A stretch of DNA of 38,208 bases from Enterobacteria phage T3: sequence record NC_003298.1; one strand, given 5' to 3'. Under the pieces are notes generated by a model. It searched no databases. It had not been told where the DNA came from and saw only the letters and a program-made list of their open reading frames with translations. Positions 1 to 38,208 of this stretch are shown here, piece by piece. A program made the position numbers and the translations under genes. The number at the start of each line of letters is the position of its first letter. Position 1 is the first letter of the stretch.

Positions 1-231
1 TCTCATAGTTCAAGAACCCAAAGTACCCCCCCCATAGCCCCTCTTAAAGCCACCCAAAGCTGGCCCTACCCCTAGGGTTTAACCTTCGGTTAACCTTGGG
101 TCTTTCCTCAAGTGGCCTATAGGATAGCCTAAAGTGATGCCTAAAGTCAATACCTAAAGTGATGGCTGCCTATTGGAGACTTAAAGAGTGTCCTAGTGTA
201 CCAGTATGATAGTACATCTCTATGTGTCCCT
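1..231. repeat. Left direct terminal repeat (231 bp), identical to 37978-38208
   Basis: Bases 1-231 are repeated exactly at the right end; contains a C8 run (24-31) and tandem CCTAAAGT-type short repeats (130-165). Confidence 0.95.
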
Positions 232-365
232 ATCTGTTAGCCCCTTAAAGTAAACCCTAAAGCCACCACCTAAAGAGCGACGCTATCTTAAAGACAACCA
301 GACCGATAGACCCACTGTTAACCTGTAGTGCTGCCCTGTAGTTGTCTATAATATCCAACGTTGTC

Positions 366-388
366 TATTTACCCTCACTAAAGGGAAT
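366..388 (+). promoter_or_regulatory. T3-type phage RNAP promoter, left-end (phiOL-like)
   Basis: TATTTACCCTCACTAAAGGGAAT matches the T3 consensus core CCCTCACTAAAGGGA; predicted +1 at 383. Confidence 0.75.
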
Positions 389-442
389 AAGGTGGATACT
401 TAAAGAGGGAATAAAGATTTAATAAAAGATTAGAATTAAGTG

Positions 443-25456: not shown

Positions 25457-25479
25457 AATTAACCCTCACTAAAGGGAGA
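25457..25479 (+). promoter_or_regulatory. T3-type promoter, class III (phi13), exact consensus
   Basis: AATTAACCCTCACTAAAGGGAGA 23/23. Confidence 0.95.
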
Positions 25480-25495
25480 CACTAATAGATACGAA

Positions 25496-25510
25496 GGGGG
25501 GGGGGGGGGG
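25496..25510 (+). repeat. G15 homopolymer tract in the gene 13 leader
   Basis: 15 consecutive G at 25496-25510, 22 nt downstream of the phi13 +1 and 10 nt upstream of the gene 13 ATG. Confidence 0.9.
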
Positions 25511-31800: not shown

Positions 31801-32759
31801 CGCGTCAAGGTATGCTTGGGGACGTTATTAGTGCCACCCTAACAGGCAAGACTACCCGCTGGGAGAAAGAAGGCTTCCTTCGTGGTGCCTCCGTAACTCC
31901 TGAGCAGATGGCTGGCATCAAGTCTCTCATCAAGGAACATATGGTACGTGGTGAGGACGGGAAGTTTACAGTTAAGGACAAGCAAGCGTTCTCTATGGAC
32001 CCACGGGCTATGGACTTATGGCGACTGGCTGACAAGGTAGCTGATGAGGCAATGCTGCGTCCGCATAAGGTGTCCTTACAGGATTCCCATGCGTTCGGAG
32101 CATTAGGTAAGATGGTTATGCAGTTTAAGTCTTTCACTATCAAGTCCCTTAACTCTAAGTTCCTGCGAACCTTCTATGATGGATACAAGAACAACCGAGC
32201 GATTGACGCTGCGCTGAGCATTATCACCTCTATGGGTCTCGCTGGTGGTTTCTATGCTATGGCTGCACACGTCAAAGCATACGCTCTGCCTAAGGAGAAA
32301 CGTAAGGAGTACTTGGAGCGTGCACTGGACCCAACCATGATTGCCCACGCTGCGTTATCTCGTAGTTCTCAATTGGGCGCTCCTTTGGCTATGGCTGACC
32401 TAGTTGGCGGTGTCTTAGGGTTCGAATCTTCCAAGATGGCTCGCTCAACGATTCTGCCTAAGGACACCATGAAGGAACGTGACCCAAACAAACCGTACAC
32501 CTCTAGAGAGGTAATGGGAGCTATGGGTTCGAACCTTCTGGAGCAGATGCCTTCCGCTGGCTTTGTGGCTAACGTAGGGGCTACCTTAATGAATGCTGCT
32601 GGTGTGGTTAACTCACCTAACAAAGCAACCGAGCAGGACTTCATGACTGGATTGATGAACTCTACCAAAGAGTTAGTGCCTAACGACCCTCTTACTCAAC
32701 AGCTTGTGGTTAAGATTTATGAGGCGAACGGTGTTAACCTGAGGGAGCGTAAGAAATAA
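28803..32759 (+). CDS. 16: Internal core protein gp16 with N-terminal lytic transglycosylase domain
   Basis: 1318 aa; N-terminal SLT-like motif ...VAWTESRFVPTAKSKTGPLGIMQF... Confidence 0.95.
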   Translation: MDKYDKNVPSDYDGLFQKEADANGVSYDLLRKVAWTESRFVPTAKSKTGPLGIMQFTKATANALGLRVTDGPDDDRLNPELAINAAAKHLAGLVGKFDGDELKAALAYNQGEGRLGNPQLEAYSKGDFASISEEGRNYLRNLLDVAKSPMAGQLETFGGITPKGKGIPADVGLAGIDHSQKVTQELPESTSFDVKGIEQEAPAKPFAKDFWETHGETLDEYNSRSTFFGFKNATEAELSNSVAGMAFRAGRLDNGFDVFKDTITPTRWNSHIWTPEELEKIRTEVKNPAYINVVTGGSPENLDDLIKLANENFENDSRSAEAGLGAKLSAGIIGAGVDPLSYVPMVGVTGKSFKLINKALVVGAESAALNVASEGLRTSVAGGDADYSGAALGGFVFGAGMSAISDAIAAGLKRSKPETEFDNEFIGPMMRMEARETARNANSTDLSRMNTDNMKFEGEHNGVPYEDLPTEKGAVVLHDGSVISANNPINPKTLKEFSEVDPEKAARGIKLAGFTEIGLKTLGSDDADIRRVAIDLVRSPTGMQSGASGKFGATASDIHERLHGTDQRTYNDLYKAMSDAMKDPEFSTGGAKMSREETRYTIYRRAALAIERPELQKALTPSERIVMDTIKRHFDTKRELMENPAIFGNTKSVSIFPESRHKGTYVPHVYDRHAKALMIQRYGAEGLQEGIARSWMNSYVSRPGVKVRVDEMLKELHGVKEVTPEMVEKYAMDKAYGISHSDQFTNSSIIEENIEGLVGIENNSFLEARNLFDSDLSITMPDGQQFSVNDLRDFDMFRIMPAYDRRINGDIAIMGSTGKTTKELKDEILALKAKAEGDGKKTGEVHALMDTVKILTGRARRNQDTVWETTLRSINDLGFFAKNAYMGAQNITEIAGMIVTGNVRALGHGIPILRDTLYKSKPVSAKELKELHASLFGKEVDQLIRPQRADIVQRLREATDTGPVVANIVGTLKYSTQELAARSPWTKLLNGTTNYLLDAARQGMLGDVISATLTGKTTRWEKEGFLRGASVTPEQMAGIKSLIKEHMVRGEDGKFTVKDKQAFSMDPRAMDLWRLADKVADEAMLRPHKVSLQDSHAFGALGKMVMQFKSFTIKSLNSKFLRTFYDGYKNNRAIDAALSIITSMGLAGGFYAMAAHVKAYALPKEKRKEYLERALDPTMIAHAALSRSSQLGAPLAMADLVGGVLGFESSKMARSTILPKDTMKERDPNKPYTSREVMGAMGSNLLEQMPSAGFVANVGATLMNAAGVVNSPNKATEQDFMTGLMNSTKELVPNDPLTQQLVVKIYEANGVNLRERKK

Positions 32760-32779
32760 TACGACTCACTATAGGGAGA
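32757..32779 (+). promoter_or_regulatory. T7-specificity promoter (phi17), exact T7 consensus
   Basis: TAATACGACTCACTATAGGGAGA 23/23; its TAA is the gene 16 stop codon; the only T7-type promoter in the window. Confidence 0.9.
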
Positions 32780-32831
32780 GGCGAAATAATCTTCTCCCTG
32801 TAGTCTCTTAGATTTACTTTAAGGAGGTCAA

Positions 32832-34508
32832 ATGGCTAACGTAATTAAAACCGTTTTGACTTACCAGTTAGATGGCTCCAATCGTGATTTTAATATCCCG
32901 TTTGAGTATCTAGCCCGTAAGTTCGTAGTAGTAACCCTTATTGGCGTAGACCGCAAGGTCCTTACGATTAATGCAGACTACCGTTTTGCTACGCGTACTA
33001 CCATCTCACTTACCAAGGCTTGGGGTCCAGCGGATGGATACACTACCATCGAGTTACGCCGAGTAACCTCCACAACCGACCGATTGGTTGACTTTACGGA
33101 TGGTTCAATCCTCCGTGCGTATGACCTTAACGTCGCTCAGATTCAAACGATGCACGTAGCGGAAGAGGCCCGTGACCTCACTGCTGATACCATAGGTGTC
33201 AATAATGATGGTCATTTGGATGCTCGTGGTCGTCGAATTGTTAACCTAGCGAACGCTGTGGATGACCGCGACGCTGTTCCGTTTGGTCAACTTAAGACCA
33301 TGAACCAGAACTCGTGGCAGGCGCGTAATGAGGCACTACAGTTCCGTAATGAGGCTGAGACTTTCAGAAATCAAACGGAGGTTTTTAAGAATGAGTCCGG
33401 TACTAACGCTACGAACACAAAGCAGTGGCGAGATGAGGCTAATGGGTCCCGAGATGAAGCCGAGCAGTTCAAGAATACGGCTGGTCAATACGCTACATCT
33501 GCTGGGAACTCTGCTACTGCTGCGCATCAATCTGAGGTAAACGCTGAGAACTCCGCTACAGCAGCAGCGAACTCTGCGAATTTGGCAGAACAACACGCAG
33601 ACCGTGCGGAACGTGAAGCAGACAAGCTGGGGAATTTTAATGGACTGGCTGGTGCAATTGACAGGGTGGATGGAACCAATGTGTACTGGAAAGGAGGTAT
33701 CCATGCGAACGGACGCCTTTACCTTACCTCAGATGGTTTCGACTGTGGTCAGTATCAACAGTTCTTTGGTGGTTCTGCTGGTCGTTACTCTGTCATGGAG
33801 TGGGGTGATGAGAACGGATGGCTGATGCATGTTCAACGTAGAGAGTGGACAACAGCGATAGGTGATAACATCCAGCTAGTAGTAAACGGACATATCATCG
33901 CCCAAGGTGGAGACATGACTGGTCCGCTGAAATTGCAGAATGGACATGCCCTTTACTTAGAGTCCGCATCCGACAAGGCGCAATATATTCTATCTAAAGA
34001 TGGTAACAGAAACAACTGGTACATTGGTAGAGGATCAGATAACAACAATGACTGTACCTTCCACTCCTATGTGTATGGTACGAACTTAACACTCAAGCCG
34101 GACTATGCAGTAGTTAACAAACGCTTCCACGTAGGTCAGGCAGTTGTAGCCACTGATGGTAATATTCAAGGTACTAAGTGGGGAGGTAAGTGGCTTGATG
34201 CTTACCTAAACGATACTTACGTTAAGAAGACAATGGCCTGGACTCAAGTATGGGCTGCTGCTAGTGGTAGTTACATGGGAGGAGGTTCTCAGACTGATAC
34301 TCTCCCACAGGACTTGCGATTCCGCAACATATGGATTAAGACCAGAAACAACTATTGGAACTTCTTCCGAACTGGTCCTGACGGTATCTACTTCCTTTCA
34401 GCCGAGGGCGGTTGGCTAAAATTCCAGATACACTCTAATGGCAGGGTATTTAAGAACATAGCGGATAGAGATGCGCCTCCAACAGCAATAGCCGTAGAGG
34501 ACGTGTAA
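32832..34508 (+). CDS. 17: Tail fibre protein
   Basis: 558 aa; TAAGGAGG SD; N-terminal MANVIKTVLTYQLDGSNRDFNIPFEYLARKF... recognised as the T7/T3 gp17 type. Confidence 0.95.
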   Translation: MANVIKTVLTYQLDGSNRDFNIPFEYLARKFVVVTLIGVDRKVLTINADYRFATRTTISLTKAWGPADGYTTIELRRVTSTTDRLVDFTDGSILRAYDLNVAQIQTMHVAEEARDLTADTIGVNNDGHLDARGRRIVNLANAVDDRDAVPFGQLKTMNQNSWQARNEALQFRNEAETFRNQTEVFKNESGTNATNTKQWRDEANGSRDEAEQFKNTAGQYATSAGNSATAAHQSEVNAENSATAAANSANLAEQHADRAEREADKLGNFNGLAGAIDRVDGTNVYWKGGIHANGRLYLTSDGFDCGQYQQFFGGSAGRYSVMEWGDENGWLMHVQRREWTTAIGDNIQLVVNGHIIAQGGDMTGPLKLQNGHALYLESASDKAQYILSKDGNRNNWYIGRGSDNNNDCTFHSYVYGTNLTLKPDYAVVNKRFHVGQAVVATDGNIQGTKWGGKWLDAYLNDTYVKKTMAWTQVWAAASGSYMGGGSQTDTLPQDLRFRNIWIKTRNNYWNFFRTGPDGIYFLSAEGGWLKFQIHSNGRVFKNIADRDAPPTAIAVEDV

Positions 34509-34566
34509 TAAGCATCAAAGGAACTACTTTAAGTCCACGGATGGACTATCACACTAAGGAGGACAC

Positions 34567-34770
34567 ATGTTGTCATTGGATTTTAACAACGAACTAATTA
34601 AAGCGGCACCGATTGTAGGTACAGGTGTTGCAGATGTTAGTGCAAGACTGTTCTTCGGGCTAAGCCTGAATGAATGGTTCTATGTGGCTGCTATCGCCTA
34701 CACAGTGGTTCAGATTGGTGCCAAGGTAGTCGATAAGATTATTGATTGGAAGAAAGCAACTAAGGAGTAA
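34567..34770 (+). CDS. 17.5: Holin (class II)
   Basis: 67-aa ORF, hydrophobic, basic C-terminus; same size as T7 gp17.5. Confidence 0.85.
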   Translation: MLSLDFNNELIKAAPIVGTGVADVSARLFFGLSLNEWFYVAAIAYTVVQIGAKVVDKIIDWKKATKE

Positions 34771-34774
34771 CTCT

Positions 34775-35044
34775 ATGGAAGTCGATAAGAGCCTGATAGC
34801 TTTCTTAGAGATGTTGGATACAGCGATGGCTCAACGTATGCTGGCAGACCTAGCTAACGACGAGAAGCGCACCCCACAACTCTATAACGCTATCAACAAA
34901 CTGTTAGACCGTCACAAGTTCCAAATCGGTAAGTTGCAGCCGGATGTTCACATCTTGGGTGGCCTTGCTGGTGCTCTTGAGGAGTACAAAGAGAAAGTCG
35001 GTGACAACGGTCTTACGGATGACGATATTTATACATTACAGTGA
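34775..35044 (+). CDS. 18: Terminase small subunit
   Basis: 89 aa from the ATG at 34775 preceded by TAAGGAG. Confidence 0.85.
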   Translation: MEVDKSLIAFLEMLDTAMAQRMLADLANDEKRTPQLYNAINKLLDRHKFQIGKLQPDVHILGGLAGALEEYKEKVGDNGLTDDDIYTLQ

Positions 35045-37431: not shown

Positions 37432-37454
37432 CATTAACCCTCACTAAAGGGAGA
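37432..37454 (+). promoter_or_regulatory. T3-type promoter, right end (phiOR)
   Basis: CATTAACCCTCACTAAAGGGAGA. Confidence 0.88.
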
Positions 37455-37594: not shown

Positions 37595-37744
37595 ATGTTA
37601 CGCTTGCTGATTGCCCTGCTGCGTCATAGAGTCACTTGGCGATTTCTTCTGGTACTTACTGCTACCCTTGGGTACGCAGGTCTTAATGACCACCTCGGTC
37701 AACTGGAAGTGGCCTTTTGCTCTATACTCTCTTGTGGGGATTAA
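37595..37744 (+). CDS. 19.5: gp19.5, small hydrophobic protein
   Basis: 49-aa ORF MLRLLIALLRHRVTWRFLLVLTATLGYAGLNDHLGQLEVAFCSILSCGD with AAAGGAGG SD; below the ORF-track cutoff. Confidence 0.7.
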   Translation: MLRLLIALLRHRVTWRFLLVLTATLGYAGLNDHLGQLEVAFCSILSCGD

Positions 37745-37977
37745 ATTATTGTTGATGACCGACAAGCGGCTCTAGGGATTCGTAGGTATAGTTTCACTAC
37801 ACCAACTCATCCCTGTAGAGTCAACCCTAAAGGTTATACCTAAAGATGCCCTGTAGTTCTTAATGGCCTTACAGGGTCTTTAAGTGTCTCCTGTGGTCTC
37901 ACATATGGTGTGGCCTTACCTAAAGTGGTTGCCTAAAGAGACCCTTTAAGAATTTACCACAAAAATCTGAATGGGTA

Positions 37978-38208
37978 TCTCATAGTTCAAGAACCCAAAG
38001 TACCCCCCCCATAGCCCCTCTTAAAGCCACCCAAAGCTGGCCCTACCCCTAGGGTTTAACCTTCGGTTAACCTTGGGTCTTTCCTCAAGTGGCCTATAGG
38101 ATAGCCTAAAGTGATGCCTAAAGTCAATACCTAAAGTGATGGCTGCCTATTGGAGACTTAAAGAGTGTCCTAGTGTACCAGTATGATAGTACATCTCTAT
38201 GTGTCCCT
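37978..38208. repeat. Right direct terminal repeat (231 bp), identical to 1-231
   Basis: Exact copy of 1-231. Confidence 0.95.

Follow-up and report, generated by a model that had tools for sequence, protein, structure and literature searches.

The sequences flagged at the two ends of the Enterobacteria phage T3 genome very probably represent the standard concatemer-junction architecture of the T7 group. Positions 1-440 and 37740-38208 of the window (the whole 38,208-nucleotide stretch that was analysed, record NC_003298.1) are the T3 concatemer-junction region, which follows the same order as its counterpart in T7, namely phiOR, gene 19.5, hairpin, array, repeat, pause site, array and phiOL (Table 1). 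In the literature, the T3/T7 junction region has been treated as carrying cis-acting maturation and packaging signals (pacB/pacC), and the T7 packaging signal has been described as PacB, which is recognised by gp18, together with PacC, which is cut by gp19. The initial annotation had proposed a set of short repeats, a C8 run and a duplicated 11-mer at these ends as candidate signals for concatemer processing or the initiation of packaging. This proposal is sound for the region, whose cis role is known, but the particular motifs that were chosen are at most candidates, as both the C-run and the left copy of the 11-mer vary among relatives and the motif near 32798 is unrelated.

Table 1. Features of the T3 concatemer-junction region, in window coordinates.
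Feature	Position	Strand	Basis or remark
Direct terminal repeat (TR), left copy	1-231	+	Identical to 37978-38208
C8 homopolymer in TR	26-33; second copy 38003-38010	+	
TTAACCTTCGG tandem duplication, x2.1	79-101	+	Tandem Repeats Finder; best-conserved TR core
12-nt-period array in TR, 4.1 copies, consensus GCCTAAAGTGAT	115-164	+	Tandem Repeats Finder
Leftward host-type promoter A0 (-35 TTGACT 150-145, -10 TATCCT 126-121)	121-150	-	Consensus scan
TATCTGTT, class II phage RNA-polymerase pause/termination core (CJ site)	231-238	+	Abuts right boundary of TR
Left-flank array: CTTAAAG 244, CCTAAAG 256 and 269, CTTAAAG 287	244-293	+	Equivalent to T7 array right of T7 repeat
CCTGTAG variant units at 322 and 335 (13 nt apart)	322-343	+	Include left GCCCTGTAGTT
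T3 promoter phiOL, core CCCTCACTAAAGGGA at 372-386	366-388	+	T7M annotation 365-387
T3 promoter phiOR, core CCCTCACTAAAGGGA at 37438-37452	37432-37454	+	T7M annotation; rightward across junction
Stem-loop, 51 nt, 26 nt after gene 19.5 stop	37770-37820	+	DNA fold
Right-flank array: CCTGTAG 37812, CCTAAAG 37826 and 37839, CCTGTAG 37850	37812-37858	+	
Inverted repeat CCCTGTA (37849-37855) / TACAGGG (37869-37875), 13-nt spacer	37849-37875	+	
Two further right-flank CCTAAAG units, 37919 and 37932	37919-37938	+	
Conserved block CTTTAAGAATTTACCACAAAAATCTGAATGGGTA, directly left of TR start	37944-37977	+	Context of left-end cut
TR, right copy	37978-38208	+	100% match with 1-231

The 231-bp TR claimed in the initial annotation is exact, and its length is within the approximately 150-250 bp expected of the genome ends of the T7 group (Studiervirinae). 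Read mapping of T3 virion DNA has revealed unique termini and a 230-bp repeat, and a "redundant terminal repeat" is annotated in the records of T7M, phiYeO3-12 and phiSG-JL2. The first 1000 bases of the window match the T7M and T3 records from end to end (99.8-99.9%), and over its first 470 and last 469 bases the sole difference from T7M is the length of the C-run, which is C7 in T7M and C8 here, thereby accounting for the two repeat lengths, 230 bp and 231 bp, reported for T3. The run does exist as claimed, although two positions to the right of 24-31, where it had been placed. Its length ranges from 5 to 8 among close relatives and is 5 in T7, and it is a length-polymorphic homopolymer for which there is no evidence of a length-dependent function.

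Within the TR, tandem units had been described at about 130-165; the array is present, with the span given in Table 1 and with CCTAAAG cores at positions 128, 140 and 153. Three CCTAAAGT units in the TR are overlapped by the sigma-70-type promoter A0; the T7M record lists it as "E. coli promoter A0 (leftward)", and those of phiYeO3-12 and phiSG-JL2 list a putative A0. In T7, by comparison, the repeat is 160 bp long, and the internal 12-nt array and A0 are features of the T3 repeat. The TTAACCTTCGG duplication is kept in T3-like, T7 and K11-like contigs. Rfam scans of both genome ends at E<=1 gave no match, and a coding role for positions 1-460 was rejected, as the only ORFs in this stretch are two of 32-33 codons on the minus strand.

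The junctions of 14 T3-like phages (Teetrevirus), taken from GenBank records and IMG/VR contigs, were aligned with those of T3 and T7. Strong conservation was found for CTTTAAGAATTTACCACAAAAATCTGAATGGGTA followed across the left TR boundary by TCTCAYAGT, for TTAACCTTCGGTTAACCTTGGG within the TR, and for TGTGTCCCT followed by ATCTGTTAG at the TR end. The T3 repeat starts with TCTCAYAG and ends with TGTGTCCCT, both of which match the pattern of the T7 group, and the T7 junction has the same terminal sequences, TCTCAYAGT at the start of its repeat and TGTGTCCCT followed by ATCTGTT at the end. The CTTTAAGAATTTACCACAAAAATCTGAATGGGTA block is kept more widely, in T3-like, T7, K11-like, Pektosvirus, Ningirsuvirus and Helsettvirus junctions.

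The best-defined signal of the region is TATCTGTT, which was overlooked in the initial annotation. Class II pause/termination signals of T7 RNA polymerase, which are hairpin-independent, have been described as having the heptamer ATCTGTT as their core, and the T7 concatemer junction is a natural example; this core requires A, C or T before it, and a downstream U-run is needed for termination. In T3, ATCTGTT occurs once in the genome, at 232-238, immediately after the TR, just as the one + strand copy of T7 is located at 161, directly after the T7 repeat, and in the T3-like phage phiSG-JL2 the same heptamer is annotated as "CJ terminator". A search with the GTGTCCCTATCTGTT pattern gave 101 viral contig stretches, and in many of these it lies approximately 120-250 nt from the contig start. 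The T3 site resembles the class II signals PTH, VSV and CJ in its 7-nt core, in its location on the non-template strand and in the T that precedes it, but differs from class II terminators in that the downstream T-run is absent, AGCCCCTT / AGCCCCTTAAAG following the core instead. Because there is no U-run, pausing rather than efficient termination is predicted, as at the T7 CJ site. The heptamer is only weakly depleted across the genome (P ~0.03 when both strands are counted, without significance for the + strand by itself), and its significance therefore derives from its position and conservation and not from depletion. As is characteristic of the T7 group, the junction is preceded by phiOR and followed by phiOL, both directed rightward, and the one-position offset of phiOL from its T7M annotation is due to the extra C in the window.

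The repeat motifs at the ends are enriched beyond chance. CCTAAAG occurs 24 times in the genome against 4.2 expected; 21 of these copies are on the + strand, and the two end regions hold 12. The loose unit YYTNNAG reaches 35 per kb in the 708-bp junction versus 5.3 per kb genome-wide (~7x). On both sides of the TR, all of the flank CCTAAAG units are on the + strand. Successive units of the right-flank array (37812, 37826, 37839 and 37850) are spaced by 14, 13 and 11 nt, and across 16 junctions the histogram of unit spacing peaks at 13 nt, with CCTGTAG units located 11-14 nt from their neighbours. As judged from these sequences, the flank arrays can be described as degenerate 12-13-bp units on the same strand, with the core CCTAAAG, which bracket the TR and correspond to the arrays of T7. 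The T7 junction shares the heptamer core, the strand and the ~13-nt spacing, but differs in copy number, as the left flank holds two CCTAAAG units in T3 versus eight in T7, where the right flank has two. The homologous T7 arrays are those that Dunn and Studier reportedly named SRL and SRR in 1983.

Across relatives, the core heptamers are kept, while spacers and copy number vary. The right-flank array at 37812-37858 is invariant in the 14 aligned T3-like junctions, save for one substitution in its first unit in ESh10. Unit copy number differs among close relatives in steps of ~13 nt, in both flanks and inside the TR, with T3 having the fewest and phiYeO3-12 carrying two extra units at the position of window 37919-37938. 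K11-like genomes, in which most of the GTGTCCCTATCTGTT matches were found, have no TAAAG units; CCTGAG takes their place there, in 3-5 copies, and in another lineage CCTAATG/CCTAACG units are located at the array position. An array of short CCT-type units is thus a conserved architectural feature with lineage-specific cores, which argues for a function of some kind. Copy number itself is free among relatives, so that any function of the array has to tolerate large variation.

A further copy of the octamer CCCTGTAG had been reported after a T7-type promoter near 32798, and it is indeed present at 32796-32803, downstream of the perfect T7-consensus promoter TAATACGACTCACTATAGGGAGA at 32757-32779. 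Its grouping with the terminal signals was rejected, however, as T7 34549-34648, with the phi17 promoter and the gene 17 leader, is matched without a difference by the 100 nt that start at 32757, and the T7 genome ends have no CCTGTAG; this copy came along with a T7-type segment. Consistent with such a mosaic, in which T3 carries a T7-type gene 17 leader, the gp18 encoded in the window is 92% identical to that of T7, 73% to that of other T3-like contigs sharing the junction motifs, and 76% to that of K11-like genomes. Covariation of gp18 with the type of repeat unit was also considered and rejected, since identity does not track the unit. The missing covariation agrees with reports that T3 and T7 gp18 are functionally interchangeable and that packaging specificity resides in gp19 and in DNA lying within 5% of the genome ends.

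These observations bear on the alternative that survives best, although we consider it rather unlikely, in which the CCTAAAG/CCTGTAG units form an array of gp18 binding sites, a pacB element that would nucleate the packaging complex beside the cuts and be comparable to the small-terminase sites that are repeated in lambda cosB or SPP1 pac. Such an array would fit with the recognition of PacB in the concatemer that has been ascribed to gp18, with one-strand direct repeats that flank both cut sites, with heptamer cores far better conserved than the spacers between them, and with a CCTAAAG core common to two phages whose gp18 proteins can replace one another. The lack of covariation weakens the idea that gp18 reads the heptamers, as gp18 of the window is only 73% identical to that of the T3-like contigs with the same junction motifs and 76% identical to that of K11-like genomes, with their CCTGAG units; in addition, unit number varies widely, and three of the units are located under the annotated host promoter A0.

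The 11-mer GCCCTGTAGTT is duplicated, as had been claimed, with exactly two copies in the window, but these are located at 333-343 and 37848-37858 and not at 327-337 and 37849-37859, the earlier positions being off by 6 and 1. The duplication was evaluated by the longest word shared between the two unique flanks, which is 12 nt (TGCCCTGTAGTT), a length that was reached in 9 of 2000 dinucleotide shuffles. Away from the ends, CCTGTAG has 9 copies against ~4.9 expected for the whole genome, and its enrichment there is not notable. Because CCTGTAG follows the spacing of the CCTAAAG arrays, in register with them at 11-14 nt, the duplicated 11-mer is best read as a CCTGTAG variant unit of the flanking arrays and not as a separate class of signal.

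Of the two copies, only the right one is under visible constraint. The left copy, at the edge of the left array that faces phiOL and with its end 23 nt short of this promoter, is replaced by GCCYTGTAGTT in relatives, by GCCCTGTGGTT in one of them, and by GCCTTGTTGTT at the same position in T7 and T7-like phages, and fold prediction gave no structure for it (0 kcal/mol). The right copy is unchanged in the 14 T3-like phages despite many nearby differences among these genomes, and provides the 5' arm of the 7-bp inverted repeat CCCTGTA/TACAGGG. Both arms of this element are invariant in T3-like phages while two loop positions vary, and the conserved right-flank pattern TACCTAAAGATGCCCTGTAGTTC..TAA.GG.CTTACAGGGTCT spans the 11-mer together with TACAGGG. 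When folded as DNA, the 40-nt segment 37843-37882 gave a z of -2.2, with 4 of 200 shuffles as stable. T7, in contrast to T3, has neither the CCTGTAG variant units nor the inverted repeat; the two genomes align to ~37845 and again from ~37950 and diverge between these points, in the part that holds the right 11-mer and the inverted repeat.

A more stable structure is located further to the left, where the segment 37770-37820 folds as DNA with -8.4 kcal/mol and a z of -3.7, equalled by none of 200 shuffles. Its 3' arm ends in CATCCCT, after which GTAGAG follows, and the element contains, at its end, CCCTGTAG at 37811-37818, a copy absent from the initial annotation. This stem-loop is found in T3-like, T7, PGX1, cp32 and K11-like genomes. 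The lower stem, AGGGAT/ATCCCT, never varies, whereas among the upper and middle pairs seven of nine stay canonical through two-sided changes and one is invariant, with two non-canonical cells; T3 TAGT/ACTA, for example, corresponds to TGAT/ATCA in T7 and to ATGC/GCAT in K11-like genomes. These pair counts come from a hand-segmented alignment that was fitted to the structure and represent four or five independent lineages, hand segmentation having been used because MAFFT placed the K11-like rows one base off. The dinucleotide that completes CCCTGTAG in the T3 stem-loop is AT in T7 and CTA(Y) in K11-like genomes, so that the conserved parts are the CCCT stem arm and the AG(AG)TCAA that follows, and not the CCCTGTAG octamer. 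The loop, at ~37793, is ~184 bp from the start of the T3 repeat and ~189 bp from the start of the T7 repeat in the respective genomes. In T7, a hairpin-ended intermediate reportedly forms roughly 190 bp to the left of the repeat, and the stem-loop at 37770-37820 would fit this position better than the inverted repeat at 37849-37875, which we offer as a lead only.

It has to be considered whether the right GCCCTGTAGTT and its inverted partner could instead be a determinant of T3 specificity that is read by gp19, or the site of the hairpin intermediate in TR duplication, with the left copy decaying or accessory. We regard this as improbable, even though the 11-mer and the inverted repeat fall exactly in the stretch of T3-T7 divergence from 37845 to ~37950, the arms are invariant where the loop varies, the fold modestly beats shuffled sequence, and the mapping of T3/T7 packaging specificity to gp19 and end DNA, mentioned above, points to elements of this kind. 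The arms, however, show no covariation because they never vary, the stem is just 7 bp long with a loop of 13-14 nt, roughly half of the relatives have lost its outer extension, and the position reported for the T7 hairpin suits 37770-37820 better. A more elaborate version, to which we give similarly little credence, would make the 37848-37875 module (perhaps with the weaker left copy at 333-343) a T3-lineage determinant by which gp19 tells T3 from T7 concatemers, with the CCTAAAG units serving gp18 and, separately, 37770-37820 acting as the hairpin start of TR duplication across Studiervirinae.

A further explanation is that the short repeats are neutral by-products of replication slippage or recombination at the ends, and that the duplicated 11-mer merely reflects common descent of the units. 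The ~13-nt steps in copy number between close relatives, in the flanks as well as in the TR, would be expected from such processes, and so would the polymorphic C-run and the drifting left 11-mer. This account is improbable, however, since T3 and T7 have kept a common heptamer core despite divergence of the spacers and of the neighbouring unique sequence, the units are strictly one-stranded, all lineages examined keep an array in this place, each with its own core, and the right 11-mer is invariant in 14 genomes with many differences around it. Finally, it is very improbable that the motifs act in replication (as pause sites, primase sites or origin elements tied to phiOL/phiOR) and not in packaging: although T7 phiOL and phiOR can act as secondary replication origins and the left 11-mer lies close upstream of phiOL, this motif is poorly conserved, and the replication pausing suggested in the initial annotation finds no specific support in the sequence, where the sole recognisable pause signal is transcriptional.

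The standard concatemer-junction reading, by comparison, allows the conserved features to be placed in a single pathway, most steps of which would be carried over from T7. In T7, a paused polymerase-lysozyme complex has been reported to engage the gp18/gp19 terminase and the prohead, which starts maturation and packaging. In replicating T3 DNA, genomes would be joined head to tail via a single copy of the 231-bp TR, and transcription from phiOR would proceed rightward through the right flank and the TR, as in T7. Given its identity with the T7 CJ core and its position just past the TR, TATCTGTT is where T3 RNA polymerase would be expected to pause, and the prohead-terminase complex may then engage at the paused polymerase, as the T7 literature describes. 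Terminal cuts would be made at the TR boundaries, beside the two most widely conserved blocks, that is, between AATCTGAATGGGTA and TCTCATAG on one side and between TGTGTCCCT and ATCTGTT on the other, and the TR would be duplicated so that both daughter ends carry the repeat. In this pathway, the arrays and the inverted repeat probably have an accessory role in cis, in the assembly of the terminase or processing complex or in TR duplication, and we infer that the stem-loop after gene 19.5 is likewise an accessory cis element of maturation and packaging.

Comparison with known systems places T3 within this scheme. Other Teetrevirus ends (T7M, phiYeO3-12, phiSG-JL2 and others) have a near-identical junction, in which the right 11-mer and its partner, the pause site, A0, phiOL and phiOR are shared, and differences are limited to the length of the C-run, the number of CCTAAAG units, a 24-nt insertion at 37893 in many relatives, and single-base variants of the left 11-mer. 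In lambda cos (cosQ-cosN-cosB), the cut site is flanked by repeated accessory elements that organise terminase, and this is related to T3 by analogy only. The ends of T3 and T7, as opposed to those of lambda, are blunt direct repeats that are duplicated at each junction, packaging is coupled to transcription, and there is no sequence relationship between the two systems.

Sequencing and dissection of the T3 and T7 genome ends go back to the 1980s, and the primary mapping of T3/T7 pac is reportedly that of Hashimoto and Fujisawa in 1992, Chung and Hinkle in 1990 and Tsuchida et al. in 1996. The flagged motifs belong to this already known end architecture and hold little new biology. The value of the analysis is instead in the corrected motif coordinates and in the separation of a conserved set, comprising the TR boundaries, TATCTGTT, the right 11-mer with its inverted repeat and the gene 19.5 stem-loop, from a drifting set made up of C-run length, unit copy number and the left 11-mer. 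Together, these provide a short, testable list for the engineering of T3-based transducing particles and packaging signals.

The junction positions that carry CCTAAAG-core short repeats in T3 also hold arrays in other lineages, where the cores are different (loci L005-L105 from IMG/VR, and L123-L127). K11-like contigs use the core CCTGAG, another group uses CCTAATG/CCTAACG, K1F and SH4 have CCTACAG/CCTACGG, and the junction array of fPS-59 is a 20-nt CCTAATGGTACTTGAAGATA tandem. In the automatic annotation of some relatives, small 'hypothetical protein' coding sequences, several of them on the minus strand, are laid over the non-coding junction and its repeat arrays, as seen in ESh10 (L112) and Bumbleweed (L114); these junction-spanning calls are probably spurious.

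Within the terminal repeat (TR), the best-conserved portion among T3-like, T7 and K11-like contigs is the TTAACCTTCGG duplication. At the left boundary of the TR, the block CTTTAAGAATTTACCACAAAAATCTGAATGGGTA is common to several genera of the Studiervirinae, having been found in T7 and in K11-like, Pektosvirus, Ningirsuvirus and Helsettvirus phages. This range of conservation is far wider than that of the short repeats, and on that ground the block is a good candidate for the sequence context in which the left-end cut is recognised.

Conserved features at the T3 genome ends
Feature	Coordinates	Position
Stem-loop, 51 nt	37770-37820	begins 26 nt past the gene 19.5 stop
Block CTTTAAGAATTTACCACAAAAATCTGAATGGGTA	37944-37977	adjoins the TR start on its left
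Tandem duplication TTAACCTTCGG x2.1	79-101 and 38056-38078	within the TR

Further to the left, the stem-loop downstream of gene 19.5 is kept in T3-, T7-, PGX1-, cp32- and K11-like phages and is followed by a conserved AG(AG)TCAA. In a hand-segmented alignment fitted to the structure, compensatory changes were found at 7 of the 9 upper and middle pairs, and scans of both genome ends against Rfam (E<=1) returned zero family matches for this element. The stem-loop could act either as RNA or as DNA, and the hairpin intermediate in repeat duplication may form there.

Elsewhere in the genome, a G15 homopolymer (25496-25510) follows promoter phi13 (core 25463-25477) and precedes the start codon of gene 13, where it occupies the ribosome-binding-site position. 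In the near-identical genome of T7M the run is G9, so its length is polymorphic.

A perfect T7-consensus promoter and the gene 17 leader (32757-32856) match T7 34549-34648 over 100 nt without a difference, and gp18 (gene 18, 34775-35044) is 92% identical to that of T7 and only 73% identical to gp18 of other T3-like contigs. Together, these identities indicate a T7-derived mosaic segment around genes 17-18. This corresponds to the recombinant origin that Pajunen et al. (2002) reportedly proposed for T3.
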